From Candidatus Woesearchaeota archaeon (lineage in GTDB: Archaea; Nanobdellota; Nanobdellia; Woesearchaeales; UBA119), in NCBI GenBank assembly GCA_030156615.1, contig JASGME010000001.1, positions 13,881 to 77,880 on the forward strand: a stretch of DNA of 64,000 nucleotides, written 5' to 3'. The translations under genes and the position numbers were made by a program. The notes under the pieces are model-generated. The model did not search any database. It saw nothing but the letters and a program-made list of their open reading frames with translations, and was not told the DNA's origin. Below, in pieces: positions 23,978 to 57,421 of the stretch; the stretch's first letter is position 1; each line of letters opens with the position of its first letter.

Positions 23978-25282
23978 TTATAAGGTCGGATTGACAACTT
24001 TCCCAAGAAATAAGATAGCTCCTGTCTCTTTTTCTTGTATAATAAAGATAAAAGGATGATCTGCATTAAATATCTTCATGTTCCTTGGCATAGCAGTTTC
24101 TACCATACCAACAGCGGTTGCAGCAGCAGCTTCAGTTCCTTCTTCATCAACATTAACGTAGGCCTGATGGATTACCTGATTAATAAACAGATTTCTTTTT
24201 CCGTCAATACCTGAAAAATCAGCATCGCTAGAAAATGCACTATGCATTCCCATTGCACTTAATACTTCTTTCATAAAATATTTTGTATCAAACTCAAATT
24301 TTGGAACTGAAATTGAATCTAACTTTGTTTTTTTCATATGAGCTTTATATTCATTTAGTTTCTCAGCAGAAAGTTCTATATCTCCAAGAGTATAATTATA
24401 AACAATTATTTCTTCAGTTTCATAATCATACGTTTCTCCTTGTTTTGGTAATAATATTAACATAGAAATGTTTTCTCCTTTATATGGTAATTCCAAAATT
24501 TGCAGTTTTTCTAATTCAGCATAATTAAATTCAGTCTTATCCGGATCCATATGCATCATTTGAATTTTTACAACCTCTTTTGGGGTGATTTTAAAATCCT
24601 TCTCTTTTGTATCTGACTTGTCAAACTCCCATTCCCATGTTCCTTTAAAATAAATAGCATTTGTAAGAACCAATCTTGTCAATTCGTTAATAGCTCCTTC
24701 AGGTATTAAATCTTTAATTTTGCCATTGGTTTGTTCTTCAATAAAAGAATTGATAGTTTGTATAGATTTTTCTGGTTCTCTGACAAAATCAACATTTACT
24801 GCTTTTCCTCCATAATATCTCTCTACTATGTTTAGATAATCATCAAGGAACGGATAATCTTGTTGAACCCATAAGGCATTTCCAGTTTTTAATTCATATT
24901 CTTTGTCTTCTTTATTGATGTTGTTATAAATTGCAGCAAAATTAGCTCTTAAAGTGTCAACTTCAGGGAAATGAAGAACTGATTCCATTTCTTCTGCTGT
25001 CTCTCCTTTTGCACCTTCATAAGTCATTGCTAAAGCTGAAAAAATACTATAAGGAGAATAAAAGATATTTCCTGTTTCAGATTGCTCTAATTGGTAATAT
25101 AAATCAAAAGCAAATTGATTTACGGCATTAACAACTTCTTGAGTTCCATATTGCGTTGCATTTGTATCATCAGCCTTTGGTGGTTGATCTGGTTGATATG
25201 GAAAGAGGAATAGTAATCCTGTGGCACTTACCGCACTTATGATAATTAGCACAAATATAATTATTAATATTTTTTTACTCAT
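23978..25282 (-). CDS. Serpin (serine protease inhibitor), membrane-anchored/secreted
   Basis: N-terminal signal-anchor is present. The hinge/RCL is VDEEGTEAAAATAVGMVETAMP. The C-terminal serpin signature is FNADHPFIFIIQEKETGAILFLGKVVNP. Confidence 0.8.
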   Translation of the reverse strand: MSKKILIIIFVLIIISAVSATGLLFLFPYQPDQPPKADDTNATQYGTQEVVNAVNQFAFDLYYQLEQSETGNIFYSPYSIFSALAMTYEGAKGETAEEMESVLHFPEVDTLRANFAAIYNNINKEDKEYELKTGNALWVQQDYPFLDDYLNIVERYYGGKAVNVDFVREPEKSIQTINSFIEEQTNGKIKDLIPEGAINELTRLVLTNAIYFKGTWEWEFDKSDTKEKDFKITPKEVVKIQMMHMDPDKTEFNYAELEKLQILELPYKGENISMLILLPKQGETYDYETEEIIVYNYTLGDIELSAEKLNEYKAHMKKTKLDSISVPKFEFDTKYFMKEVLSAMGMHSAFSSDADFSGIDGKRNLFINQVIHQAYVNVDEEGTEAAAATAVGMVETAMPRNMKIFNADHPFIFIIQEKETGAILFLGKVVNPTL

Positions 25283-26986: not shown

Positions 26987-28453
<1,467 letters not shown>

Positions 28454-28509
28454 TTTTTTATTTTCATCTTTCGGGACAGCCCCCTTATATTCCTTTTTTG
28501 GGGATGTAA

Positions 28510-28583
28510 GGGCCTGTAGCTCAACTTGGGAGAGCGTCGCCTTTGCAAGGCGGAGGCTTCGGGTTCAAATCCCGACGGGTCCA
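28510..28583 (+). tRNA. tRNA-Ala (anticodon TGC) in the 16S-23S spacer; no encoded CCA
   Basis: Manual fold gives acceptor gggcctg/cgggtcc with the G3:U70 Ala identity pair, anticodon loop ttTGCaa, and T-loop ttcaaat. Confidence 0.85.
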
Positions 28584-28689
28584 TTTTAGTCGTAGTTCGA
28601 TACCGCAAGATATCGGATGGTAGGCCGATCCTCTTTTAGAGGTGCTTGATTCATTTTATCAAGTTATTTTGATGAGGCCAATCATAGGA

Positions 28690-31615
28690 GACTGGAAAAC
28701 AGGATAGATAAGATTCTACTAAGCCATCAGATGGATGACTTGGCTTGAGAAGCCGATGAAGGACGTGGCAAGCTGCGAAAAGTCTCGGGGAGTTGCATGC
28801 AGACCTTGATCCGAGAATTTCCTAATGGGACTTCCTGTTCCTTCGGGAACACTCCTTTTGGAGGGGGAACGCGGAGAATTGAAACATCTTAGTATCCGCA
28901 GGAAAAGAAATCAATTGAGATGTCGTAATTAGGGGCGACCGAAAGCGACGAAAGGCAAACTGAATCTCTTATAGCAATATAAGAGAGATGTGGTGTTTCG
29001 GCTATCTTGATTTCTTGTATGTCTAACTTAAGTCTTCTGGAAAGAAGCACCATAGAGGGTGATAGTCCCGTAAGAGAAAGCATGCAAGAATGTGATAGTA
29101 CCGAGAGTAGCGTCTATTGGATATTAGGCGTGAATATGGGGGACATTAACCTCTAACCTTAAATACTTCTCAAGTCCGATAGCGAAATAGTACCGTGAGG
29201 GAAAGTTGAAAAGAACCCTTGGCAGGGTGTGAAAAGAGCCTGAAATCTGATGGTTATACCGGGATAGGGCACTATGTGTGTTCTATCGTACGTTTTGAAT
29301 AACGGGCCAGGGAGTATATCTATGTGGCGAGAATAACCTTCTATGAAGGGGATTCGTAGGGAAACCGAAAAGTTCGCAGCAATGCGAGGAACTGAGTTTT
29401 AAAATGCTCGGAGTCACGTGGATTAGACCCGAAACCGCACGATCTACGCCTGAGTAAGGTGAAGCGAGGGTAAAACCTCGTGGAGGCCTGCAGAGGTGCT
29501 ATGGACAAGTGCTCTTCTAACTTGGGTGTAGGAGTGAAATGCCAATCGAGTGCGGATATAGCTGGTTCCAGCCGAAATTGGCCTAAGTCAAGCCTCGAGG
29601 GAGATGTCTTATGTGGTAGAGATACTGATAGGAGATTTAGGGGGAGAAATCCCTCGGTTTTCTGTCAAACTCCGAATGCATAAGAGTCGTAGATCTCGGG
29701 AGACGGGGGCAGGGGGTAAACTCCTGTTCCAAGAGGGGAACAACCCAGACTCTAGTTAAGGTCCCAAAATGTTGACTAAGTGCGAAAGGCCAAAAGGTGT
29801 CTATCTCCTAAGACAGAGAGGAGGTTGGCTTAGAAGCAGCCATCCTTTAAAAAGTGCGTAACAGCTTACTCTTCGAGGGGGTAGGCCCTGAAGATCGACG
29901 GGGCTAAGTCGACTACCGATACTAGGGATATGCCAAAAGCATATGATAGGCTGGCGTTCTATAAGGGCGGAATCATCTCTTCAAGGAGATGTGGACCTTA
30001 TAGAATTGAAAATCCTGGCAGTAGTAGGATCTAAGCAGGGTGAGAGTCCTTGCCACCGAAAGGGCTAGGGTTCCTTGACAATGCTGATCAGTCAAGGGTT
30101 AGTTGGTCCTAACCGGCGACCTAACAGGTTAGTCCGGGAAAGGGAAACAGGTTAATATTCCTGTACAATCTGGATATCCGGCAACGAAAGATCTTTTTTC
30201 GACGGTTCAGGGTAGACATAGACAAGCTGTCGCTTGTTTCAAGGGGTATAAATCTTTGGAGTATCGTAATGATGAGAAAAAGATGAAAACTCCGATGAGC
30301 ATCCGCGAGGGTGTTATGTTGATCCCAGGACTCAGTGAAAAGAGAAAAGATATAGATTCCAGATTGCCATACCGAGATCCGACACAGGTGCCCCTGGGTG
30401 AGTAGCCCAAGGTGTGCGGGTGATAATCCAGTCGAGGGAAGTCGGCAAATTAGTCCCGTACCTTCGGAATAAGGGATCCCTGAGATTGTTCTCTTAAGAG
30501 TGCAACCTCAGGGCTCAGTGACAAGGGGGATCCGACTGTTTAACAAAAACATAGCCAACTGCTAGTTCGAAAGGATTTGTATAGTTGGTGAAGTCTGCCC
30601 AGTGCCAGTACTTTAAACTTCGGTTCAACGGAGCGAAGAGCTGGTAAACGGCGGGAGTAACTATAACTCTCTTAAGGTAGCGTAATACCTTGCCATTTAA
30701 ATAATGGCTTGCATGAATGGCGTAACGAGATCCCCACTGTCCCCGACTGGAAACCCCTGAACTTCCTGTACTGGTGTGGAGGCCAGTGTCTTCCAGTGGG
30801 ACGTGAAGACCCCGTGAAACTTTACTGTAGTCTGTGGTTGAGGAGCGAGTTTTGATGTGCAGGCTAGGTGGGAGTTGTTGAGGCTTGGCCGTCAGGTCAA
30901 GTGTAGACGAAAGATGAGAAACCACCCTTCAAGACTCACTTCTCTAACTAACATTTTGTTAGGACACCCATTGATGGACAGTTTGACTGGGGCGGTACTC
31001 CGCTGAAAAGATATCAGTGGAGCCCAAAGGTTGGCTCATTCGGATTGGAAACCCGAAGTTGAGTGCAAAGGCAAAAGCCAGCCTGACTGAATCCTAGACA
31101 AGGAAGGATTCAGAAACGAAAGTTTGGCTTAGCGAACCTCTATCTCTCCTTAATGGGGGGTAGAGATGACCGAAAAGTTACTCCGGGGATAACAGAGTTG
31201 TCTCTCCCGAAAGTCCATATTGACGGAGAGGCTTGCTACATCGCTGTCGGCTCTTCCTATCCTGGCCGTGCAGAAGCGGCCAAGGGTGGGGGTGCTCACC
31301 CATTAAAAGGGATCGTTAGCTGGGTTCAATACGCTGTGAGGCAGTATGTTTAATATCTACTGGAAGTGTTTATGGTCTGATGGGAAGAACCCTCTAGTAC
31401 GAGAGGAACGAGGGATCGAGGCCTCTGGTCTATCGGTTGTCTGACAAGGCAGGCCGAGCAGCTACGCCTTAGGGGATAAGTGCTGAAAGCATCTAAGCAC
31501 GAAGCCCTCCTAGAAAAGAGACCAAGGACACGGGAAGAAGACCCGTTTGATGGAACTGGCGTGTAAGCATCAAGCCTTCGGGCGAGGTGTTCAGCGCGCA
31601 GTCCCCAACAGTCCG
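28690..31615 (+). rRNA. rrl: 23S ribosomal RNA (archaeal), boundaries approximate
   Basis: The 5' region has gccgatgaaggacgtggcaagctgcgaaa. The sarcin-ricin loop context is agtacgagaggaac. The 3' region has ctgaaagcatctaagc. No 5S follows. Confidence 0.85.
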
Positions 31616-31763
31616 ATTTATCTTATCACTTTTTTCAGTCTCCTATGGTTTTAGCCTCTTTTTTTCTTTCACTTTTTTCTTTTCTTTTTCTTTTTTATCA
31701 AATTCCATTTAGAATTCCATTTATGGAAAGACTTAAATAAAATGATTTTAATTCTTTAAATCT

Positions 31764-33683: not shown

Positions 33684-35876
33684 CTATGCAATCATGAATT
33701 GCTGGATTCCAATTGTCAGAAGACTGAACATTATTGATGTAACTATCCCAACGATGAAATACAAAGATGTTCCTTTTATAAGATTCTGTCCCATAGAGTA
33801 TCCTCTATAAACACTATCCTCTCCTTTCTCTATTGTTGCATAGATATAAGACATAATAATTATTATCTCAACAACAAACATTCCTACAACTATCTGGAAG
33901 AAATAACTTGGGATGCCTATTCCAAAGAATTGAAGGGATTCTGCAGATACCATTCCCGGAGCTGTCGCTGTTTGATTTCCAATGTTTGTTTGTGTCTGAT
34001 TAATTACATTTATGACATTTGAGAGCAGGTTTGTAATTCCTACAACTATGCCTCCTATCAAAGGAGTTAGAAAACTCATCTGAGACTTTATGCTAGATAA
34101 AACATCCGCGAGAATATCCTTTAATCTCTCGTTTATCCTATGAATTTGTTTTAAATATTCGGCAAAGTTTCTCATCGCTCTGGAAGCAACATTAAGTCCT
34201 CTCTTAATGCTTTCAGTAAATATCTTCATTGCACTCTCTATTATGTTTGACGGATAAAATGCAATGGCTCCTCTTCTTTTGTCAAATATAGCTTCATCAA
34301 TTCCCATCCCAAGTCTTTGTATATTATCTGACATAATTGAAAAGAATCGTGCAACAACACTTCCCGTAGTTGTTTTGGATACTGCAGAGATAGCAAATTC
34401 AGGAGATGTCCCGTCAGATAATCTATCACTTAACAGATACAATGACGATTCAAACTCCTTCTCAAGAACCTCTGATTCTTTTCTATTTTCTTCAAGCTCT
34501 TCGTTGCTCAATTTAAGATATGTTCCTAAGGCTAATCCAACAGCAACAGGAATAAAGAAGGATAGAATAAGGGCTCCAAGACCAAAAGGACCAATTGTCT
34601 CACTGTCTCCTGTTTGGCTAGGTACATAACCCATGAAATAAATAATGCCGTCAATAATAGGAATTTCAAAGTTTGGATTTATTGCATGTATTATTATAGG
34701 ACTAAGACCTAATAGAAAAAGAGGAATAAACAAAAGAATACTTATAGCTAAAGGTGTCATCTGGATATTTATTCCTAATAGATTTATCTTGACCTTTTTC
34801 TTTCTTGAGCCCTCTATGAATACTTCCTCAACTCCAGAACCACCGTAGCCAGTAGGCCTTGTTGTCAGAATGCCTAAGGCCATAAAAAAAACCATAAAAG
34901 GAATTATTGCATTATATATCATAGCTATATGATACCAGGATACAGCAGGCATAAGACCACCAACAAGAGGAAGTATGATTAAAGTCATTATAGGCAATAC
35001 TATGCCAAGCATGTTAAGGCTGTCAATTGGAGACTTTAGATTTTGGGCAAAACTAAGCATCTTATCATAAGTTGTCTCAAGGATGGAGCTCATTGCTCTG
35101 TCAAGGCTTTCCAGTCTTCTTTCATTTGAGGCTTCAGAAAGAGAGCTTTCAATAACCCTGAATGTTTCAATAAACTCATCATTATATCCTCTCCATCTCT
35201 CAAGATAATCATTCAGGGCGTCTATTATCGTGTTGTACCTTCCAGATTCAACATCCCACATCATTTTTTTGAGATCTATTGATAAAGGAGGTGTTAAATG
35301 ATTTGCAGCAAAACGAAGAGCAGCTTCTAAATTAGATGTATGTCTTAGATATGTAACAACATAGAATACACAGAGAATCATTTGATTTGATGCCCGCATC
35401 CTCCATTTGGTTGCAAGCAAGGAAGGTATTTTTCTAAACGGCTGTATCATCAATAAGCCAAAAACAAAAAAGAAAAGCATAGTAATTATCTCTATAGTTC
35501 CTGTAATTATTCCTGTTAAAGCTACAACAACTAATCCTGCTACTATGAAAAAGATAGGAATCAAAAGAGCAAAACTCATCGCCCCTTCGGGAGTTATGTT
35601 CAAATGGGCTGTTTCTATATCTCTTTTTAGTTCCTTCTCAAGATTCTTAGGAGGAGAAATCTTAACGATATTTTCACAAAACTTGCATAACTTTTCATAT
35701 GTACTCAATTTAGGAGGAGCAAACTGATCAATAAAATTGCTGTAATCTTTAGAAATGATCCCGGAATCTGAATCATCTATCTCAACATCAGAAATATCTC
35801 TTCCTTCCCTTAAGGCAGCCTTTATTCTCCTTTCATACTTCTGTTTCATGAGCTTTGTGAACTCATCATCATCCAT
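33684..35876 (-). CDS. FlaJ/TadC-like polytopic membrane platform protein of an archaeal type IV pilus/archaellum-type secretion system
   Basis: 730 aa with two multi-transmembrane blocks separated by cytoplasmic helical domains. It lies directly downstream of a FlaI-type ATPase and is tightly coupled to it (2-nt gap). Confidence 0.5.
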   Translation of the reverse strand: MDDDEFTKLMKQKYERRIKAALREGRDISDVEIDDSDSGIISKDYSNFIDQFAPPKLSTYEKLCKFCENIVKISPPKNLEKELKRDIETAHLNITPEGAMSFALLIPIFFIVAGLVVVALTGIITGTIEIITMLFFFVFGLLMIQPFRKIPSLLATKWRMRASNQMILCVFYVVTYLRHTSNLEAALRFAANHLTPPLSIDLKKMMWDVESGRYNTIIDALNDYLERWRGYNDEFIETFRVIESSLSEASNERRLESLDRAMSSILETTYDKMLSFAQNLKSPIDSLNMLGIVLPIMTLIILPLVGGLMPAVSWYHIAMIYNAIIPFMVFFMALGILTTRPTGYGGSGVEEVFIEGSRKKKVKINLLGINIQMTPLAISILLFIPLFLLGLSPIIIHAINPNFEIPIIDGIIYFMGYVPSQTGDSETIGPFGLGALILSFFIPVAVGLALGTYLKLSNEELEENRKESEVLEKEFESSLYLLSDRLSDGTSPEFAISAVSKTTTGSVVARFFSIMSDNIQRLGMGIDEAIFDKRRGAIAFYPSNIIESAMKIFTESIKRGLNVASRAMRNFAEYLKQIHRINERLKDILADVLSSIKSQMSFLTPLIGGIVVGITNLLSNVINVINQTQTNIGNQTATAPGMVSAESLQFFGIGIPSYFFQIVVGMFVVEIIIIMSYIYATIEKGEDSVYRGYSMGQNLIKGTSLYFIVGIVTSIMFSLLTIGIQQFMIA

Positions 35877-35878
35877 AT

Positions 35879-38182
35879 TCAGCTACCTCTCCATTTATCC
35901 TTCCTGCTTTCCTCATTAAGCCATTCTTCCCATTCCCTATAAGCTTCATCAACATCAAGCTTTCCCCTCTTCTTTGTAATCCTGTCGCAGATCATATGAA
36001 ACTCATCATTTGCTCTTATAACGAATTGAGCTTCAAGAAGCTCAGGATTTTTCAATTTATCAGAGATTGAAACAATATCCATCTTTGTTTTAGCCCTAAG
36101 TTCAATGTTCTGCCATAATGCATCCCAATTCCCTGCCCATTCCTTTACATTTGAAGCAATAGATTTAAGGATTTCAGAATCTCCATGAATTAAGTCAGGT
36201 GTCGCAACTAATTCATCATTCTCTGGATTATATTTCATCAAATCAACAAAGCCTTTCTCAGCCTGCGGATCATTTTCCCAATCCTTTCTTACTTCAGTAA
36301 TCTGTGTAACCCTTCTCCATCTGTGTAATCCATCCGATGAGCGTATTGGATTTGCAACCACAATAATGTCAGTAGCCTTGAATGATGTTCTTGGCACTTC
36401 TAAATCATTTACAACCCTGTCAAATACACCATAAGGACTATCCCCATGAATCGTTCCTGCAACAACATTTGCAAGAGCTCCAACCCTCATTGCTTCGTAT
36501 AATGCCCTTGCTTCAGTGCTTCTGACCTCTCCAATAATTAGTGCAGAATCGCCTAATCTTAGTGTTGTTCTAATGCCTTCATCTGCAGAAACCTCTGAGC
36601 TTCCCTGTGTTAAAGCAGCTGCGACCTTCATAGATTGAATATTATATCCCAAATCTCTTAAAGAAGAAACAGGCAGTTCTAAAGTATCTTCAATAGTTAT
36701 TATTCTTACTGATCTCATAATCTCTGTCATCAATGAACCAAGAAGAGAGGTTTTACCAGCGCTTCTTGTCCCGGCAACCAACATAGTTCTTGAACCATCT
36801 ATCAGAAAGCTAAGCAAGCCTGCTGCTAAAGGATTTATCATTTTAGTTTTTATGAAAAGAGGCAATGTCCAAGGCTTTTCTCTATGCCTTCTGAATGCAT
36901 ATCCTAGGCCAGTTGGATTTAAAGGAGGAGAAATAACGGCAACCCTTGCCCTAGCATCCTCAAGTTGTATCTCTGTATCCAAGATTGGGTTTGCCTCGTC
37001 AAGAGGCCTTCCTGAAATCATTCTAAGTTTTGTTGCCCATGATTCTGCTTCATCAATCGTTGGAACTATATTTGTAATACAATCCTGATATTTTTGATGA
37101 TTTATGAACAGGCAAGTTCTTCCCTGTGGACTGTTTAATACAACATCCTGAATATTTTCATCACTTAAAACAAGCTCAAGAAGTCCAAATCCTACTGTAT
37201 ATCTTACAAGGATTTTTGCCAGTTCATCTATCTCTTCATCCTTTAATGCTAATCCCCTATGATTAACTAATTCTTCAATAAGTCCTTTACCAATATGAAA
37301 AAATACTTCGCGCATCCTCTCAGGGTCAATAAAATCCTCTCTGCTAGGTTTATGCTCTGATATGATATTTCTTGCAGTATCAAGAAGTTCATACTTTTCC
37401 TCAGAAAGCGAGAATTCTGGTGGGGATAAATGATACATCCTGAGCACAGAATCAGGAAATTCAAAGATTGTTATCTGAGTTCCATCTTTTAATATGTAAG
37501 AATCGATAGGATTGCCTCCTTCAGGATATGAAGCCATTAGTTTTGTATACATAAAGTTCGGTTTTACACTAGGACTGAAAATCTTAGAATAAACATCTCT
37601 CTCACCTTTTTTCAAGCCTGCCAAATAAGGCAATGCTGCAAATATCATTCGTGTTTTCTTTAATTTTTCAATTACTTCTTCAAGTTCTCCGACTAATTGC
37701 TCAAGATATTGCTTTTTATTCTCATCAGTGGTTTTTCTTAAGAGAATGTTTACCTCTCTCTTTAACCTCGTAAGCTGGACAAAAGAGCCAATAGGATCTT
37801 CAAGAAGAGAATCTGTTATTATCTTCTTAAATCTTAAAAAGAAGTCCATTACCTCTTGAATGGGTTGTTCTGGGGATGAAGCTAGGTTTAAGAATGACAT
37901 GAGCTCTTTATCTTTGTTTAATCTTGTGAATAAATTAACAATCTCAGAAAGCATAACTGTTTGATGAAAGTCATATTCATAATCTCTCGTCTTTCTTAAT
38001 ACAATCTTAGTAGCAGCATCGTTCTCTCCTATTGCTCTTAAAACAGCTTTCATACACTGCGGATTTTCCTCAATTGAAGGAGAAAAAGGACAATCCTTGC
38101 AATCAAATTCTATGATTGTATCTTCTCCTTCTCTATCAACATCATATTTGCAATATGCAGGCATCCTGCCACCTCTAATCAC
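35879..38182 (-). CDS. Type II/IV secretion system ATPase, FlaI/PilB-like, with an N-terminal Cys4 extension
   Basis: Walker A is GTRSAGKTSLLGS. Walker B / Asp box is IIGEVRSTEA. His box is AGTIHGDS. The N-terminal 45 aa carry C-x16-C-x2-C-x11-C (CKYD...CKDC...C). Confidence 0.75.
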   Translation of the reverse strand: MIRGGRMPAYCKYDVDREGEDTIIEFDCKDCPFSPSIEENPQCMKAVLRAIGENDAATKIVLRKTRDYEYDFHQTVMLSEIVNLFTRLNKDKELMSFLNLASSPEQPIQEVMDFFLRFKKIITDSLLEDPIGSFVQLTRLKREVNILLRKTTDENKKQYLEQLVGELEEVIEKLKKTRMIFAALPYLAGLKKGERDVYSKIFSPSVKPNFMYTKLMASYPEGGNPIDSYILKDGTQITIFEFPDSVLRMYHLSPPEFSLSEEKYELLDTARNIISEHKPSREDFIDPERMREVFFHIGKGLIEELVNHRGLALKDEEIDELAKILVRYTVGFGLLELVLSDENIQDVVLNSPQGRTCLFINHQKYQDCITNIVPTIDEAESWATKLRMISGRPLDEANPILDTEIQLEDARARVAVISPPLNPTGLGYAFRRHREKPWTLPLFIKTKMINPLAAGLLSFLIDGSRTMLVAGTRSAGKTSLLGSLMTEIMRSVRIITIEDTLELPVSSLRDLGYNIQSMKVAAALTQGSSEVSADEGIRTTLRLGDSALIIGEVRSTEARALYEAMRVGALANVVAGTIHGDSPYGVFDRVVNDLEVPRTSFKATDIIVVANPIRSSDGLHRWRRVTQITEVRKDWENDPQAEKGFVDLMKYNPENDELVATPDLIHGDSEILKSIASNVKEWAGNWDALWQNIELRAKTKMDIVSISDKLKNPELLEAQFVIRANDEFHMICDRITKKRGKLDVDEAYREWEEWLNEESRKDKWRGS

Positions 38183-38671
38183 TTTCTAAAGAATGATTCT
38201 TTTAATAATTTTGCTTTTATACACTTATTGTTATCCATAAACTTTGCCTATTGATAACCTTTTTTATTGTTTTATTACACTTCTTCTCTTATTAAACTAT
38301 ATAAGGTAACAGGAATCATATAAAATGGATAACTTCTCAACTTTTTATCAAAATCCAATTATCTTTGTTGTTATATAAAACTGTTGGGGTAGTTAATCAA
38401 TTAAAATAAGTTGATTTATTCAAAGAGAAAAAGATTTCTCATTAATTTTCAATTAAAGAACGAATTCTTTAAATTTGATAGAACTTTAAGAGTCTTATAA
38501 ATATAGCTTTCTATAATTAATAAAAGTAAGAAAAAAATCTACTTTTTTAATCTTAGCCGTTCTTTCTTTTCTTTTGTTAACCTTTAAATACAATGAAGAG
38601 AGACTTAGGTTCTTGTTTATTCCACACATGAATTGAAAAAATTTATAAAGATTTTTGGTTAACATTTTCTT

Positions 38672-39838
38672 ATGAAGCTTTATTCGCCACCTATCATAAG
38701 TTTGAAACAAAAATTAGTTCTTGGGCATGGCGTAAATATTGTATGGAATGATGTAATAGGCAGGTACATGCGATCTAAAGGAGAAAAAATACAATATTTT
38801 TATCCTTCTTGGAATCATCAAGGAAAAAGAGCTGATCAGTTGGATAGCAGCGAATTAGAAAAAAAAATATTGGCGTTAGAACAAGATATGAGAAGAGAAT
38901 TATCATGTTTTGGTATTGAAGAATCATACACATTGTACAGAGATACTGATGAAATATCCAAAAAAAACTCCCAAAAATATTTCATGCAATTGATCCAAAG
39001 AGGTTTTATTGTAGAGCACAACGGAGAATATCTCTTGGACTTATCAAGAATTTACACTAAAACTAGAATAAAAGAACACTTAGAATCTGTAAGATATAAT
39101 CCTCCACATTTGAAAAAAAGAATATTTGACTTGACCAAAACTCTAACTGGATTATATCCAATCTCCAAAAGAAGAAGGTATGCTACTCCCATTCCAAATT
39201 CTGTTTTTAGTATAAATCCTATTTTTGATTTAGCAGTTAGTCCTGCATTATTCTCTGAAGAACCAGTCGATTATTGTATAGATGGAAACAGAACTCTCCT
39301 AAGAGGGACATTTATCCCATTTGCAATTTGGAGTGCACTTTTTGACAAGCCTTTTGCACGCAATTGCTGTGCTCACGGATTCTTAAATCTAACTGATGGA
39401 TTAGAGAATATGAAAATTGAAAAGATTAAAAAAAGTATTGGCGATCCTATTATTGATTCAGATGTTCTAAGGTATTGCGTGCTTTTACCAACAAACTCCT
39501 TAAAAGATATGATAATTAACCAAGATACTTTGATGAAGGGTAAAAAGATGATTTATCGAGCTTCAAATTTAGCAAAATACTTTGTAAAACATTATGGACC
39601 CCAACAAAATAACCAACAGGGTGATGAAGAAATAGAAAAAATGATTGAAACGATGAGAATCCCTTTTGCTATGGAAATTTTTAGAAACCGAATTTATTGG
39701 TTAAGTAAAAAGATAGAACGAGGAGAAAAAACTACTGAAGATGATATAAAAGAATATCAAAAACTGATAAAATCTATAAGTCCTATTTTTCCTTCGACCG
39801 TAAAGAGGATAGATGAAATACTGAAATGGAAAGCCTAA
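38672..39838 (+). CDS. Methionyl-tRNA synthetase-like protein, truncated and motif-degenerate (paralog or pseudo-enzyme)
   Basis: The class Ia aaRS scaffold is recognisable. The HIGH region reads PPIISLKQKLVLGHGV (HIGH replaced by LGHG). The DxxARYxRxxG...GTDEHG region reads NDVIGRYMRSKGEKIQYFYPSWNHQG. IGKDIxRFHAIYWPAML reads IDGNRTLLRGTFIPFAIWSALF. FAHGFxxVxGxKMSKS reads CAHGFLNLTDGLENMKIEKIKKS. The anticodon-domain start DSLRYYY reads DVLRYCV. The CP zinc knuckle is deleted. Length is 388 aa, versus 500 aa or more for a MetRS core. Confidence 0.5.
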   Translation: MKLYSPPIISLKQKLVLGHGVNIVWNDVIGRYMRSKGEKIQYFYPSWNHQGKRADQLDSSELEKKILALEQDMRRELSCFGIEESYTLYRDTDEISKKNSQKYFMQLIQRGFIVEHNGEYLLDLSRIYTKTRIKEHLESVRYNPPHLKKRIFDLTKTLTGLYPISKRRRYATPIPNSVFSINPIFDLAVSPALFSEEPVDYCIDGNRTLLRGTFIPFAIWSALFDKPFARNCCAHGFLNLTDGLENMKIEKIKKSIGDPIIDSDVLRYCVLLPTNSLKDMIINQDTLMKGKKMIYRASNLAKYFVKHYGPQQNNQQGDEEIEKMIETMRIPFAMEIFRNRIYWLSKKIERGEKTTEDDIKEYQKLIKSISPIFPSTVKRIDEILKWKA

Positions 39839-40527
39839 AACAAAAATATCAAAAAATATCTCAAGAATTTTTGAAGAATATAAAAAAAGGAAATAAAGTT
39901 GTTTGTGCTTTGATCACTGGCTCTTATTTTAATAACAAGTTATCAGAAAATTCAGATATTGATATCTTTATTATAACATCAGATTCTGATATCGCAAAAA
40001 GAGGAGTAAAAAGAATCAGCAATGTCAAAATATCATTTTTTATGAATTCTTTAATGATGGTTAAAAGATTATTAAATGAAGAAAAAGATCTCTTTAAAAG
40101 ACCAACAGCAGAAAGAATAGTTTTTTCTGATTGTATTTATGGAGAGGAATTATCAAAAAAATTAAAAGAAGAAGCAAGTAATGTCATTAAAAGGAAACTC
40201 CCTAAGTTGACAAAAAAGGAAATATATGATTACGGATGGTATTTATATGATAAAGTGATCGTTCTAAAGAGAGATTTAGATAAAATTCAGAAACAATTTA
40301 TGATAAATGATTTGTTTTGGATTTGTACAGATATATTTTTCAAGATAAACAGAACCTATAAACCACATAATAAATATGTTCTTCCAAAAATAAAAGAATT
40401 GGATTCTATTTTTTATGAATATCTTAAAGAGCATCTAACTGGTAGTGAGGAAGCAATTTTCAAAATGACAGACTATCTTCAAAAAGAAATGGGATTCCAC
40501 CAAAAAGATTATTCTATAACCTATTAA
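39826..40527 (+). CDS. Pol-beta superfamily nucleotidyltransferase (ANT/KNTase-like: NTase domain plus C-terminal helical domain)
   Basis: hG[GS] motif and metal-binding Asp motif: CALITGSYFNNKLSENSDIDIFIIT. The start overlaps the stop region of the MetRS-like gene by 13 nt. Confidence 0.5.
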   Translation: MESLKQKYQKISQEFLKNIKKGNKVVCALITGSYFNNKLSENSDIDIFIITSDSDIAKRGVKRISNVKISFFMNSLMMVKRLLNEEKDLFKRPTAERIVFSDCIYGEELSKKLKEEASNVIKRKLPKLTKKEIYDYGWYLYDKVIVLKRDLDKIQKQFMINDLFWICTDIFFKINRTYKPHNKYVLPKIKELDSIFYEYLKEHLTGSEEAIFKMTDYLQKEMGFHQKDYSITY

Positions 40528-40789
40528 AGGTAATTTTTTGTCTCATTATATCATTTTACAAAAAACATTGATCTCTTTTTTGAAATTTTGATTTGGAAAT
40601 CTTTGGTTTCCAACTATTTTTTTATGAAGTGAAAACTAGCACATATTCTATTAATAATGATCTTTATAAGTTTGAGAGTTCGTTTTAGTTGAAATTTAAT
40701 TGAAACTAAAATTTGGCGAAATTTTTGGAATGTCTATTAATTTATATAGATGGAAATTCTTTTTCTTTCTTTTAATGTTGTGAATCTTT

Positions 40790-54167: not shown

Positions 54168-55409
54168 ATGAGCATGACACTTGAAGATGTCATTGCCAAG
54201 ACGAAAAGACATTTTAAAAGCGGGATTGTGGCAGCCGTTGCTGGCATAACTTTGCTTAGTGGTTGCACTTCTCCTCCTCCTTCTCCGCCCCCGACTAATG
54301 AAAAACCTGTGATAAACATTGAAACTTTAGATATTCATCTTGATTTTGATGGCGTTAATGTTATTGATAACAATAACGATGATATTATTGACTCTTGGGA
54401 TGAGGTTGATGATATTGGTCCAGTTTATGTATCTGCTTATAAGGTTCCTGTTACTTCTTATGATGAATATACAGTTAGCACAGAATTCCCTGAATTAGAT
54501 TCTATTTATCTTGAGGTTGACAGGAACGCGAGAGAATGTATTATGGAAGAACAAGAGTTCAGCGATAGTTCTGACATTAATTTCTCTTTGACTTATCCAG
54601 ACAAAACTTTAGAAGATTTCATAATTGAAATAGAAGTCAGAGATAAGGATGAAAGTCATCATAATTACTCTTTCTTAGTTGATCCTCAGATGGAAGAAGT
54701 TGATAAATATGTAAAGCTTGGTCAGAATAATAAAATATTGAATATCTTGTTAGGCTATGGTGTTGCCAATCATGAGAATAGTGGTGAACAACCTGTACAA
54801 CGCGATGAGGTTGCAATAGAATATTCAACAGGCGATTGGCCTGAGGGCAGCCCTGAAGAAATCTGGTGGATAAATAAAGAAGGATACAACTTAACGCCTG
54901 AAGCCTCTCAAGCGATAAGAGATTCTTGTGAATACTTTTTCCCTGGAGTCCCTATTATAATAAAAGATAGTTATGAAACACCTATTCCAGATAAAATTTT
55001 TTTTATAGAAAAAACAGATGGCCAAGCTGGCGCTGTTGTGACTTTCTGGAGTACTGATAATTATGAATATGGAACAAATTATGTTAGAAATGGAGGAGTA
55101 TACTTGCGTTACGATTCAACAGGAGCCGTTAATCAAGAGATAGGTACAGTTGCTGAAGCCGCAGCAGAACCGCAAGGAACTGGGTTTAATTCAATTTTTT
55201 CAGGGAATGAAGAAATAACACCCTGTGATGAAGCTGTTTTTGCTATAAAACACAGCCAAGAACCAGAAGTAGGATGGGTTGTGATATATGAACCAGATCC
55301 AGGGGGTTACCCTTGGCCAGAAACAAAAGTCTCTTTTGCAGGTAACGCAACAACATCAGCAAATAATAATAGGACTGTTTATGTCCTTCCTAAGAGAGAG
55401 GAGTTCTAA
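54168..55409 (+). CDS. Acidic secreted lipoprotein, function unknown
   Basis: The signal peptide ends in the lipobox LLSGC, followed by a Pro/Ser linker SPPPSPPPT. The mature part is D/E-rich. Confidence 0.5.
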   Translation: MSMTLEDVIAKTKRHFKSGIVAAVAGITLLSGCTSPPPSPPPTNEKPVINIETLDIHLDFDGVNVIDNNNDDIIDSWDEVDDIGPVYVSAYKVPVTSYDEYTVSTEFPELDSIYLEVDRNARECIMEEQEFSDSSDINFSLTYPDKTLEDFIIEIEVRDKDESHHNYSFLVDPQMEEVDKYVKLGQNNKILNILLGYGVANHENSGEQPVQRDEVAIEYSTGDWPEGSPEEIWWINKEGYNLTPEASQAIRDSCEYFFPGVPIIIKDSYETPIPDKIFFIEKTDGQAGAVVTFWSTDNYEYGTNYVRNGGVYLRYDSTGAVNQEIGTVAEAAAEPQGTGFNSIFSGNEEITPCDEAVFAIKHSQEPEVGWVVIYEPDPGGYPWPETKVSFAGNATTSANNNRTVYVLPKREEF

Positions 55410-57421
55410 GGTTTGTTTATTGGATGATCTTTCTTTGGCGGAGTTACAGTCCTTGAATCGGACGGAGTCTTAAAGCAATAAGAAGTATTATCTTCTGTTG
55501 TGATGATTTTTTCGCAAGTATATTCTTTAGCTAATATTTCTCCTCCAGAACAGTAAAATTCTATCAGTTTTCCATCAGAAACCTGATCACAGCCCATTTC
55601 AACATTAACAAATTGGAAGTCATCATCTATTTGTCCGTTTTCTTCGTTCCCGTCATTATTATTCTCTGCGTACATTGTATAGACACAGCCCCATTCCTTT
55701 GGCTTGTCCCCATAATCTGTTTCTATACATTCTCCTAGGCTAGTAGTTGGACTCTTTGGTCCTTTACCAACAACATTACGAGGAGCATCAGCAGATTTTA
55801 TTACTACTATCTTTTCATTTTTTCTGGTATCAAAACTACAATATTCTCCAACTAAATTACAATAAACAACTGAAGCAGTGTTTCCTGTGCCACATATGTT
55901 TGGATCACTATCTAAATAATTGTAACAGATGTCTTCTCCGTATTTGAGTCGGCAACTATCTACCACTGGATCATAATATTCATCTTGACGACAATATCTT
56001 TCGTTCCTATCTTCTCCTCCTATTGGATTCTCAACATAACTTGATTGAGATGCAAAAGATGTGGAATTCATGCAATAAAGAGTTTCTCCACTTACTTCAT
56101 TGTAACATGTTGAATTCCCTGCAATGCACGGTTGATTATAACAGGATACTGTGCAATTATTGTTAACACATACTTCATAATCTCCAAAAATGGCTCCTCC
56201 TCCACATTGTGCATCAGTATTACAATCACGCCAAGTCCCAGGATAGCCACACCAATCAGGATCACTATCATGATCTACGCTAGGTCCTTGACTATTTGAA
56301 GGATAGCATACATTATTATACACACAATCCGTAGAAGAAAGGCAACATGCTTTATCATCTAAATCTGGATCTTGGTATGAATAATCAAGAGTGTTGTCTC
56401 CTACCCCGCCACAAACATATTCGCTCCCATCATCACCACAGCATGTTGTGGCTGAAACCTCTCCACCTATATTCCATTTACAAGAAGAACAACATGAGCA
56501 ATATGTTGATGAATCGTCTCCATCTAGAGTTTCTGAATAACAATTGCCATTTGAACAATAATGATTTATATATTCTCCGCCATAACAACCATCTGTGCCA
56601 CAGGATTCCACATTTGAACTTGTGTAAGTGCAGGATCCACCAGAACAAGTATAAGTTCTGTATTCTTTAGTAGAAGCATCCTTACAATAGTCTCCAGAGT
56701 AAAGAGCACAATTATCACTCCAACTTAAAGAGTACGTACAAGATGCACTTCCCACGGCTCCTGTACAAGAATAATCTCTTGATTCTCTGATGTCTCCATT
56801 ACAATAGATTCCATCATAATCATCACAATCTTTACTGCTGGTTCTTTTATAATCACATCCTCCTGGAATGCAGTAATAGTTTCGTTCTTCTAATTTATTG
56901 CCAGAACCACAAGCATATCCATCGTAATCATTGCAATCTTCACGGCTTGTCTCGACGAAGTGGCAGGCGTAGTTTCTACACTCCTCGTATCCAGTAACCG
57001 AAACCTCACCAGCGCAATAATTTACTTCAGAATCGCAATGTGAACTAGAAGTACATTCTACACATTGTCCATCATGGCAATATGGTTGAGAAGAGTAACA
57101 GCCTCCACAATCAAGGGTCCCCCCACAACCATCACTTACAGTACCACACTCAACACCAAGCTCACTACAAGTAGAAGGAGTACATTCGTTGCATTCTCCA
57201 CCAGAACAGCCGTATGTACAGGTAGTTGTTGTTTCTTCATCCACAACACAATATCCATCTAAGCAGTAATAGGTTTGGTGCACTGCGACATTACCATCGC
57301 AATATGAATTAGGTGGACAATCCGAATCAAAATTGCACGCTTCAACAACTTCAACAGAAAGAACAAAGCTAAGAAGAAATCCAAGCAAAACAACAGCCAT
57401 CAAAAGGGTTCGAAACTTCAC
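55406..57421 (-). CDS. Large Cys-rich modular secreted/surface protein (671 aa, signal peptide, about 90 Cys)
   Basis: An N-terminal signal peptide is present. There are repeated modules of the form C-x-DYDG-x-x-C-x(7-9)-R-x-Y-x-C. Examples are CNDYDGYACGSGNKLEERNYYC, CDDYDGIYCNGDIRESRDYSC and CALYSGDYCKDASTKEYRTYTC. The protein is rich in G/S/Y/D and has no transmembrane segment apart from the signal. Confidence 0.55.
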   Translation of the reverse strand: MKFRTLLMAVVLLGFLLSFVLSVEVVEACNFDSDCPPNSYCDGNVAVHQTYYCLDGYCVVDEETTTTCTYGCSGGECNECTPSTCSELGVECGTVSDGCGGTLDCGGCYSSQPYCHDGQCVECTSSSHCDSEVNYCAGEVSVTGYEECRNYACHFVETSREDCNDYDGYACGSGNKLEERNYYCIPGGCDYKRTSSKDCDDYDGIYCNGDIRESRDYSCTGAVGSASCTYSLSWSDNCALYSGDYCKDASTKEYRTYTCSGGSCTYTSSNVESCGTDGCYGGEYINHYCSNGNCYSETLDGDDSSTYCSCCSSCKWNIGGEVSATTCCGDDGSEYVCGGVGDNTLDYSYQDPDLDDKACCLSSTDCVYNNVCYPSNSQGPSVDHDSDPDWCGYPGTWRDCNTDAQCGGGAIFGDYEVCVNNNCTVSCYNQPCIAGNSTCYNEVSGETLYCMNSTSFASQSSYVENPIGGEDRNERYCRQDEYYDPVVDSCRLKYGEDICYNYLDSDPNICGTGNTASVVYCNLVGEYCSFDTRKNEKIVVIKSADAPRNVVGKGPKSPTTSLGECIETDYGDKPKEWGCVYTMYAENNNDGNEENGQIDDDFQFVNVEMGCDQVSDGKLIEFYCSGGEILAKEYTCEKIITTEDNTSYCFKTPSDSRTVTPPKKDHPINKP

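Follow-up and report, generated by a model that had tools for sequence, protein, structure and literature searches.

A putative two-gene pilus-type motor of Woesearchaeota with an N-terminal cysteine cluster that appears ancestral and often lost

A 64-kb stretch of DNA from Candidatus Woesearchaeota archaeon (contig JASGME010000001.1), here referred to as the window, carries on its minus strand two adjacent genes, one for a secretion-superfamily ATPase and one for a large membrane protein. A previous sequence-only reading had singled out the ATPase for four cysteines near its N terminus. The locus raises the question of whether this cluster sets the motor apart as something new or represents an old trait of an otherwise ordinary machine, and of what the two proteins do together. 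The pair and the elements at the start of the ATPase gene are as follows.

35879..38164, minus strand: ATPase of the secretion superfamily (GspE/PilB/TadA/FlaI-like), 761 amino acids, assigned from Pfam T2SSE, PDB sequence matches and homologs
38170..38175, minus strand: Shine-Dalgarno-like GAGGTG, separated by a 5-nt spacer from the ATG at 38164, assigned from sequence and 16S complementarity
38054..38152, minus strand: cysteine cluster C5-x16-C22-x2-C25-x11-C37, a probable structural metal site, assigned from sequence, conservation, tree and predicted structure
33684..35876, minus strand: divergent polytopic platform protein of the PilC/GspF/TadC/FlaJ type, 730 amino acids with about 9 predicted transmembrane segments, assigned from predicted fold and gene adjacency

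The ATPase had been described as a protein of 767 amino acids, which corresponds to the open reading frame at 35879..38182 on the minus strand when read from a mechanical GTG start at 38182. The frame and its translation proved to be as described, but the length did not stand, the true start being likely the ATG at 38164, which yields 761 residues. The GAGGTG sequence upstream of this ATG is complementary to the 3′ end of the 16S rRNA encoded in the window (...GGATCACCTCC). Furthermore, the gene call for this very protein on contig L003 gives 761 amino acids, and a database relative that is 99% identical (P0001) has the same length. In the 761-residue numbering the spacing C-x16-C-x2-C-x11-C is exactly as claimed. 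The possibility was also raised that the cluster lies within an untranslated leader and that translation begins at an internal Met. This is a formal possibility, the next in-frame Met being M38; however, residues 11-37 are conserved at the protein level in 245 family N-termini, with G13, P29, S30 and E32 present in 91%, 94%, 93% and 92% of them, and this conservation of residues before M38 argues that the cluster is translated. In addition, the Shine-Dalgarno-like site precedes the ATG at 38164 at the correct spacing, and the cysteine region is confidently folded as part of the N-domain in the predicted structure. On the strength of the protein-level conservation and the Shine-Dalgarno-like site we rejected the untranslated leader, whose probability we regard as negligible.

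The assignment to the secretion superfamily was borne out by a Pfam T2SSE (PF00437) match of 48.8 bits, above the cutoff of 24.9, to residues 417-598. All three catalytic motifs noted before, namely Walker A (GTRSAGKT, 465-472), the Asp box (ITIEDTLE, 489-496) and the His box (GTIH, 570-573), were found together with Walker B (LIIGEVR, 542-548), and residues G465, G470, K471, E492, D493, G545, E546, R548 and H573 are invariant among 21 relatives. More than 6000 homologs were retrieved, the closest of which are about 760 amino acids long, and the PDB sequence matches included afGspE, CpaF and FlaI. The archaellum pair FlaI/FlaJ (ArlI/ArlJ) resembles the present locus in that a polytopic platform protein accompanies a secretion ATPase. 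The specific label FlaI had to be withdrawn nevertheless, as the archaellum FlaI equivalog model NF058587, whose cutoff is 550 bits, gave a score of only 116.7; the FlaI of S. acidocaldarius in the PDB matched at an E value of 5e-13 only. Some database records call the Woesearchaeal ATPase 'FlaI'. None of flaB, flaF, flaG, flaH and flaJ was detected among the window's open reading frames scanned with Pfam. The protein can be divided into four parts.

37520..38164, minus strand: family-specific N-terminal region, residues 1-215, from predicted subdomains
36845..37522, minus strand: canonical secretion-ATPase N-terminal domain, residues ~215-440, which aligns with afGspE from chain residue 26
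36266..36844, minus strand: ATPase core, residues ~441-633, with all four motifs, from Pfam, PDB matches and conserved motif residues
35882..36265, minus strand: conserved, Trp-rich C-terminal tail, residues 634-761, beginning where the PDB matches stop at 633

The best solved sequence relative is afGspE of Archaeoglobus fulgidus (2OAP; clade 2, arCOG01817), which matches residues 215-633 with an E value of 7e-29. Both proteins have the architecture of an N-domain followed by a RecA-like core and the same catalytic motifs, but afGspE lacks the N-terminal extension of about 190 residues together with its cysteines. The afGspE alignment begins only at residue 215 of the query, so the claim that some 190 amino acids precede the usual N-terminal domain is upheld. 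Of the long extensions reported at both ends, however, only the N-terminal one is real in this sense: the C-terminal tail comprises 128 amino acids, whereas afGspE has about 90 residues left unmatched, so that the tail is only some 40 residues longer. No PDB sequence match extends into this tail (634-761), and its tryptophans W676, W680, W684, W745 and W748 are invariant among the 21 relatives.

The ATPase contains seven cysteines in total, at residues 5, 22, 25, 37, 351, 362 and 726, and four of them falling inside 33 residues would be expected with P of ~0.008 under random placement. In bacterial GspE/PilB proteins a Cys4 zinc motif is C-terminal, where it is structural and not catalytic; here the four cysteines are N-terminal and lie in an unrelated accessory domain. 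As had been implied, the C-terminal CxxC...CxxC motif of the ATPase C-domain is absent, no cysteine being present between residues 363 and 725, and the NCBIfam GspE models gave only about 17 bits. The predicted structure of the N-terminal region (pLDDT 89.2) comprises a subdomain built of a beta-hairpin, a helix and a second beta-hairpin (~5-65), followed by a helical bundle (~66-180); its first elements are two strands (6-12 and 15-21) and a helix (35-47). In the predicted secondary structure C5 stands where strand 1 begins and, by the register of the hairpin, lies opposite C22, the C22xxC25 knuckle directly follows strand 2, and C37 occupies the N-cap or first turn of helix 35-47. Judged from secondary structure alone, this layout is compatible with a Cys4 zinc site of the zinc-knuckle or treble-clef-like kind. 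We also considered that the N-terminal subdomain might be a duplicated canonical N-domain and rejected this, since a comparison of the two gave no duplication signal. In the predicted model, the extra 190-215 amino acids appear as a clade-specific domain composed of a small alpha/beta subdomain and a helical bundle.

The cluster proved not to be a hallmark of the family, as all four cysteines (CCCC) are retained in only 34 of 246 family N-termini (14%). The residues found in their place are mostly hydrophobic (L, Y, A, V, W). The first three cysteines tend to occur together: among 57 sequences that carry C1, 52 also carry C2 and C3, and C1 stands by itself in a single case. On a tree built from ATPase residues 216-761 only, sequences with CCCC were scattered over several separate clades, which implies at least 4 changes of the full Cys4 state; these changes are most likely losses. 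By these comparisons, membership of the Woesearchaeal ATPase family is not tied to the Cys4 cluster.

The search for related systems led to halobacteria, the nearest annotated relative found being Haloterrigena pHTUR04. Its ATPase aligned with the query by BLASTP from residue 192 (226 bits, 35% identity over 414 amino acids), and the halobacterial relatives have N-terminal cysteines of their own, at positions 38, 40, 56 and 66, conserved to 90-98%. Profile-profile comparison of the N-termini by hhalign, with a halobacterial profile of 120 sequences, gave E values of 7e-6 to 7e-5 at a probability of 62-85%, which is moderate support, and paired C5 with C38, C25 with C56 and C37 with C66, the remaining ligand position being shifted. 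The N-terminal alignment compared by hhalign with the single Haloterrigena ATPase was not significant (E value of 0.45). The membrane partner matched the halobacterial partner by hhalign with a probability of 99.6% and an E value of 5.6e-25 over 517 columns. By these profile and sequence matches, both members of the pair are shown to be related to the halobacterial ATPase and its partner. The Haloterrigena ATPase scored 226 bits by BLASTP and afGspE 103.6 bits by phmmer; as the two methods differ, this is no more than a hint that the Woesearchaeal ATPase is nearer to the halobacterial clade than to afGspE. Taken together with the tree, the alignments point to the N-terminal cysteine cluster as an ancestral and often lost trait of this archaeal ATPase clade.

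A cysteine-rich N terminus had already been described for the 4F clade of archaeal ATPases by Makarova, Koonin and Albers in 2016 (PMC4858521), as had a second N-terminal cysteine domain for subclade 4D. With this description and the homologous four-cysteine set of halobacteria, the earlier view of the cluster as unusual or new is not supported. According to the same paper, 4F comprises type IV pilus-like systems of halobacteria, methanomicrobia and nanoarchaea with an 'MA1299-like' ATPase (arCOG01818) that is paired with a TadC-like gene and bears an additional, variable Cys-rich N-terminal domain; the Woesearchaeal ATPase likewise has four cysteines in residues 5-37. Upstream of the Haloterrigena pair lie genes for an Asp-rich protein of 175 amino acids and for a pilin-like protein of 154 amino acids with an N-terminal hydrophobic segment, which match the arCOG07564/arCOG10216 layout that Table S4 of PMC4858521 lists for loci of 4F. 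The Woesearchaeal ATPase would on this basis be a candidate member of 4F, the evidence for such a placement being indirect and coming through the Haloterrigena locus. There are also differences from 4F and Haloterrigena: the Woesearchaeal ATPase has about 760 residues against 620-650, with a larger helical part in its N-terminal region, the partner has 730 against about 600, and the window is without the Asp-rich arCOG07564-like gene of 4F loci. In Figure S1 of PMC4858521 the cysteines are given as 'not conserved' for the 4F orthologs of halobacteria and nanoarchaea; because the Haloterrigena-type family conserves four of them, contrary to that figure, it may differ from the exact 4F set of Makarova et al.

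The 730-residue membrane protein was present as claimed, its reading frame starting 2 nt past the ATPase stop codon, and it is probably translationally coupled to the ATPase. Bacterial PilC is typically about 400 amino acids long, so that the partner is nearly twice its size. Its identification as a platform protein is borne out by the predicted fold only: a structure search against 48,164 PDB chains placed the cytoplasmic domains of PilC, EpsF and TcpE in the top three positions, with a Foldseek probability of 0.99 for EpsF (2vmb), and the predicted model contains a helical-bundle cytoplasmic domain of the PilC/GspF fold. At the level of sequence, neither Pfam nor NCBIfam gave a T2SSF (PF00482) signal, and a PDB profile search returned no platform protein. 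The predicted model shows two helical regions on the cytoplasmic side; no internal repeat was detectable when the first half was compared with the second by hhalign (E value of 0.13). The ATPase family occurs in at least 586 GTDB species genomes, and the partner family was found in 62 of 80 related loci, in 46 of them directly downstream on the same strand. The gene pair is thus shown to be conserved across hundreds of DPANN genomes.

We consider it probable that the locus encodes an ordinary type IV pilus-like assembly motor of two genes, in which the four cysteines are an ancestral and dispensable structural metal site. The pair would then be the two-gene core of a filament assembly machine of Woesearchaeota (DPANN). 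The ATPase, presumably hexameric like its solved relatives, would dock on the cytoplasmic domains of the platform, and ATP hydrolysis would drive the extraction and polymerisation of pilins with class III signal peptides encoded elsewhere in the genome, the filaments probably serving adhesion or host contact. The Cys4 cluster would most likely bind zinc and stabilise the alpha/beta subdomain; it appears dispensable, as most Woesearchaeal members have exchanged the cysteines, mostly for hydrophobic residues, and kept the neighbouring ones. The N-terminal domain as a whole probably makes protein-protein contacts, either with the cytoplasmic regions of the platform or with the coiled-coil proteins encoded in the operon of other genomes.

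Alternatively, the four cysteines might bind no metal and either lie buried in the core or be joined in one or two disulfides, with no function of their own. The L, Y, A, V and W found at these positions in most members suggest that the positions are buried and that cysteine is one acceptable residue among several, and the presence of a single CxxC knuckle, where zinc ribbons and rubredoxins typically have two, points the same way. The co-occurrence of C1, C2 and C3 is harder to accommodate, and so is the halobacterial four-cysteine set, whose conservation of at least 90% with one ligand shifted is the pattern usually seen when a metal site is maintained. Stable disulfides are, moreover, unusual in cytoplasmic proteins of non-hyperthermophiles. 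Disulfide bridges were proposed by Makarova et al. for the N-terminal cysteines of 4F and 4D (PMC4858521); on balance, we judge a metal-free cluster unlikely. We hold it highly improbable that the cluster acts, where it is kept, as a regulatory redox or metal switch gating the engagement of the ATPase with the platform. Its place in an accessory domain outside the catalytic core, and its retention in some clades and loss in others, which could reflect lifestyle-specific regulation, would suit such a switch, but the operon has no redox partner, and losses that recur while the remainder of the domain is kept fit a dispensable structural role better.

The remaining alternatives concern the output of the machine. 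The pair might derive from type IV pili and have changed its function to the export of non-pilin substrates or to a host-cell contact structure, as Makarova et al. considered for the pilin-less two-gene subclade 4D (PMC4858521). The absence of a prepilin, archaellin or prepilin peptidase next to the pair, pointed out before, was confirmed and would agree with this: two pattern scans of the window's open reading frames of at least 50 amino acids found no class III signal peptide pilin, and a Pfam scan of the multi-transmembrane and other candidate frames found no prepilin peptidase. Neither the Asp-rich arCOG07564 protein nor a PilA-family pilin (arCOG02981/arCOG10216) is present in the window. 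Of 80 related loci, just 2 have a pilin next to the ATPase. What accompanies the operon in other Woesearchaeota is, instead, a pair of coiled-coil proteins and a tandem array of three paralogous membrane proteins with several hydrophobic segments, and the platform has diverged too far to be recognised by Pfam T2SSF. In the window, tblastn detected none of these conserved neighbour families; the ATPase is surrounded there by a GTPase gene, an rRNA operon and housekeeping genes. Against a change of function, archaeal major pilins are, according to PMC4858521, commonly encoded apart from the ATPase and TadC genes, and the pilins of nanoarchaeal 4F members are given there as unidentified. Loci L069 and L070 encode classical pilins (K-A|Q-x-x-V-E, cleaved between A and Q, with Glu at +5) in a divergent operon beside the ATPase, and the cytoplasmic domain of the platform is predicted to have the PilC/GspF fold. 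Woesearchaeota are also reported to possess FlaK and type IV archaellin/pilin-like genes and to express them at high levels (PMC11606122). We therefore regard a changed function as decidedly unlikely. A fuller version, a DPANN-specific machine derived from type IV pili with a non-pilus output in host contact or transfer, an N-terminal docking or regulatory module and a Cys4 metal or redox switch in some lineages, seems very unlikely to us. A non-pilus machine, if real, would in most genomes include the two coiled-coil proteins and the three membrane-protein paralogs.

Returning to the assembly motor with a structural metal site, the type of motor formed by ATPase and platform is already known, as is, since 2016, the Cys-rich N terminus of the clade. 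Being old, dispensable and common to the halobacterial relatives, the cysteine cluster should not be read as a novelty of the lineage. The locus is otherwise ordinary, and the sole new mechanistic question that it poses is which partner the clade-specific N-terminal region binds. A widespread Woesearchaeal 'hypothetical' protein of 730 amino acids emerges as the platform partner of a pilus-type ATPase, which would improve the annotation of hundreds of genomes. Physical host contact is essential to DPANN archaea, and filaments resembling type IV pili are among the foremost candidates for making it.

The two genes of interest lie on the minus strand of a low-GC window (~35%) that also carries an archaeal rRNA operon, arranged as follows.

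33684..35876, minus strand: partner ORF, 730 aa, downstream of the ATPase ORF
35879..38182, minus strand: ATPase ORF, mechanical GTG start at 38182, ATG at 38164
38170-38175, minus strand: Shine-Dalgarno-like GAGGTG, upstream of the ATG at 38164 with a 5-nt spacer
26987-31628: archaeal 16S-tRNA-23S rRNA operon

The sequence-only reading had described an ATPase of 767 aa. The ORF was confirmed; its start codon was not, as the GTG at 38182 is a mechanical call and initiation at the ATG at 38164 yields 761 aa. This is also the length of the identical protein called in the related contig L003 and of P0001, which is 99% identical and recorded under the name of a 'Candidatus Woesearchaeota archaeon' MAG. 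The GAGGTG motif complements the 16S 3′ end GGATCACCTCC. Initiation at an internal Met, which would place the cysteines in an untranslated leader, was excluded because the residues from the ATG to M38 are conserved at the protein level among 245 family members (G13, 91%; P29, 94%; S30, 93%; E32, 92%). The 730-aa partner is present as reported, its start codon lying 2 nt past the ATPase stop.

Directly upstream of the ATPase is a strain-variable 2.56-kb segment (38225-40784; GC of 0.28-0.29) encoding a 233-aa MNT/Pol-beta-type nucleotidyltransferase and a 388-aa protein whose sole match, to class-I aminoacyl-tRNA synthetases (MetRS/ValRS-like), is fragmentary. In L003, 490 bp bearing a NUDIX gene occupy this place instead, and both flanks are 93-99% identical to the window at the nucleotide level. 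Elsewhere, a full-length serpin with an N-terminal hydrophobic segment (Pfam Serpin, E value of 1e-121; 23978-25282, minus strand) has an Na+/H+ exchanger and the rRNA operon as neighbours; at the gathering threshold, the 64-kb window yielded no 5S rRNA. Pfam matched neither of two further large proteins. One has 671 aa, a hydrophobic segment at its N-terminus and several Cys residues early in its sequence (55406-57421, minus strand); the other has 413 aa and a lipoprotein-like N-terminus (...LLSGC; 54168-55409, plus strand).

The Walker A motif, Asp box and His box noted earlier were all found in the ATPase, together with Walker B, and relatives show no variation at the key positions of these motifs. 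Pfam assigned T2SSE only. The name 'FlaI' in some records is unsupported, because the top NCBIfam models scored far under their cutoffs (TadA-family, 121 bits; archaellum FlaI, 116.7 bits versus a cutoff of 550). The protein is a generic archaeal T4P-type ATPase. Database matches exceeded 6000; the best 120 of these share 59-99% identity and are nearly all 750-770 aa long, and those that carry a name are from Woesearchaeota or Nanoarchaeota. When one genome per GTDB species was scanned, at least 586 genomes proved to encode a relative. Some family members reach 1260-1783 aa (P0102, P0116, P0248, P0258, P0265, P0277 and P0325); P0102 and P0116 contain intein and LAGLIDADG homing-endonuclease domains (PF14890, PF14528), and inteins have therefore invaded the ATPase in some lineages. 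Many contigs carrying the gene pair (L004, L007, L012 and others; binchicken co-assemblies) are titled 'uncultured Methanosarcinales archaeon', L040 'Armatimonadota bacterium' and protein P0080 'bacterium', titles that are probably taxonomic mislabels or reflect bin contamination.

In the best solved relative, Archaeoglobus fulgidus GspE (2oap), chain residue 26 aligns with query residue 215, and hence about 190 N-terminal residues are extra. Of the long extensions previously claimed, the N-terminal one thus holds; the 128-aa C-terminal tail exceeds the unmatched afGspE tail by only ~40 aa. When residues 1-215 alone were searched against 1.84 billion representatives, 240 proteins were matched; the region is specific to this ATPase family, since each match listed begins within ~130 residues of the protein N-terminus. 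For this N-terminal region, AlphaFold2 predicted a confident fold (pLDDT of 89.2), with an alpha/beta start (beta-hairpin 6-12/15-21, helix 35-47, second hairpin 53-57/61-64) followed by a helical bundle (66-180).

The N-terminal Cys4 pattern is present as C5, C22, C25 and C37 (C1 to C4) in the 761-aa numbering. Such clustering is unlikely by chance, because the whole ATPase has only seven Cys residues, four of them inside 33 residues (P of about 0.008). The cluster is not a family character: of the 246 family N-termini compared, 34 keep the complete set of cysteines and 18 more the first three, whereas 90 retain the fourth alone, 33 the second alone and 56 none. Hydrophobic residues (L, Y, A, V, W) predominate among the replacements, within flanks conserved at >90%. 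Both C2 and C3 occur in 52 of the 57 sequences having C1, which suggests a joint role for the three, with the reservation that kinship of the sequences inflates such counts. On a neighbor-joining tree built from residues 216-761 only, sequences with all four cysteines are scattered over several separate clades, requiring 5-8 changes per Cys position and at least four for the full set. The simplest reading of this distribution is an ancestral Cys4 site that was lost repeatedly. In the predicted secondary-structure register, C5 lies opposite C22 at the hairpin base and the first turn of the helix holds C37, an arrangement compatible with tetrahedral ligation.

No sequence method, Pfam and NCBIfam among them, recognized the partner, which source records name 'hypothetical'. 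Foldseek, in turn, matched it to EpsF (2vmb) with a probability of 0.99, indicating a predicted platform fold. Of 80 related loci, 62 contain the partner family, and in 46 it follows the ATPase directly on the same strand. These findings support the proposed FlaJ-like platform, of which the partner would be a highly divergent representative.

Within the plasmid collection, the closest relative with an annotation is a 648-aa ATPase on Haloterrigena turkmenica pHTUR04 (226 bits; 35% identity over 414 aa), followed by a 604-aa 'secretion system protein' without a Pfam match. The partner family aligned with this protein by hhalign (probability of 99.6%, E value of 5.6e-25, 517 columns); compared with it, the extra length of the window partner is mainly central, around residues 338-470. 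Upstream on pHTUR04, one gene encodes an Asp-rich protein of 175 aa and another a protein of 154 aa whose N-terminus carries a hydrophobic segment, matching the arCOG07564/arCOG10216 arrangement listed in Table S4 for loci of subclade 4F, a type IV pilus-like archaeal clade (Makarova, Koonin & Albers 2016, PMC4858521). Among 120 halobacterial homologs, the four N-terminal cysteines C38, C40, C56 and C66 are kept at 90-98%. Profile-profile alignment of Woesearchaeal and halobacterial N-termini (E values of 7e-6 to 7e-5, probability of 62-85%) pairs C5/C38, C25/C56 and C37/C66, whereas the remaining Cys lies elsewhere in the same hairpin region of the alignment (C22 versus C40). According to Figure S1 of the 2016 paper, halobacterial and nanoarchaeal orthologs do not conserve the cysteines. 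Collectively, sequence and profile comparisons show the Woesearchaeal gene pair to be related to a halobacterial 4F-like locus. The N-terminal rather than C-terminal Cys motif, previously called unusual, is described for archaea in that paper (PMC4858521) and is therefore not new.

Two pattern scans (ORFs of ≥50 aa) and Pfam searches of candidate ORFs, multi-TM ones included, detected neither a class-III-signal-peptide pilin nor a prepilin peptidase gene in the 64 kb. Across most Woesearchaeal loci, a divergent operon precedes the ATPase; it codes for a coiled-coil protein of 149 aa (48 loci) and a protein of 221 aa (47 loci). Further upstream, a membrane protein of 193 aa that contains several hydrophobic segments is usually present as three tandem paralogs (41 loci). 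Within the 221-aa family, the L001 member showed a weak UBA-like match at its N-terminus and matches of coiled-coil type at its C-terminus. All three families are without Pfam or NCBIfam assignment, and none occurs in the window. Classical type IV pilins (K-A|Q-A-A-V-E with Glu at +5) end the divergent operon in L069 and L070.

L001 6023-9838: neighbour set (coiled-coil, 221-aa, membrane paralogs), equivalents in about 41-48 of loci L004-L083
L069 8265-8744 and 5611-6126, L070 8221-8748: pilin-like genes (MKK..KA|QAAVETL..., Glu at +5)

These genes are the only direct link of the ATPase family to pilins; they adjoin the ATPase in just 2 of 80 loci, neither of which has the platform gene immediately downstream.

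Superfamily membership, motifs and gene-pair conservation are shown by sequence comparison. We infer that the ATPase, which like its solved relatives is presumably hexameric, would dock on the cytoplasmic domains of the platform, and that ATP hydrolysis would power the building of an adhesive filament from pilins whose genes lie elsewhere. The N-terminal region probably serves as an interaction module and the Cys4 cluster as a dispensable structural metal site. The ATPase and platform of the sequence-only reading hold, their unusual character does not: the pair belongs to a previously described kind of archaeal motor whose N-terminal Cys motif was already known.
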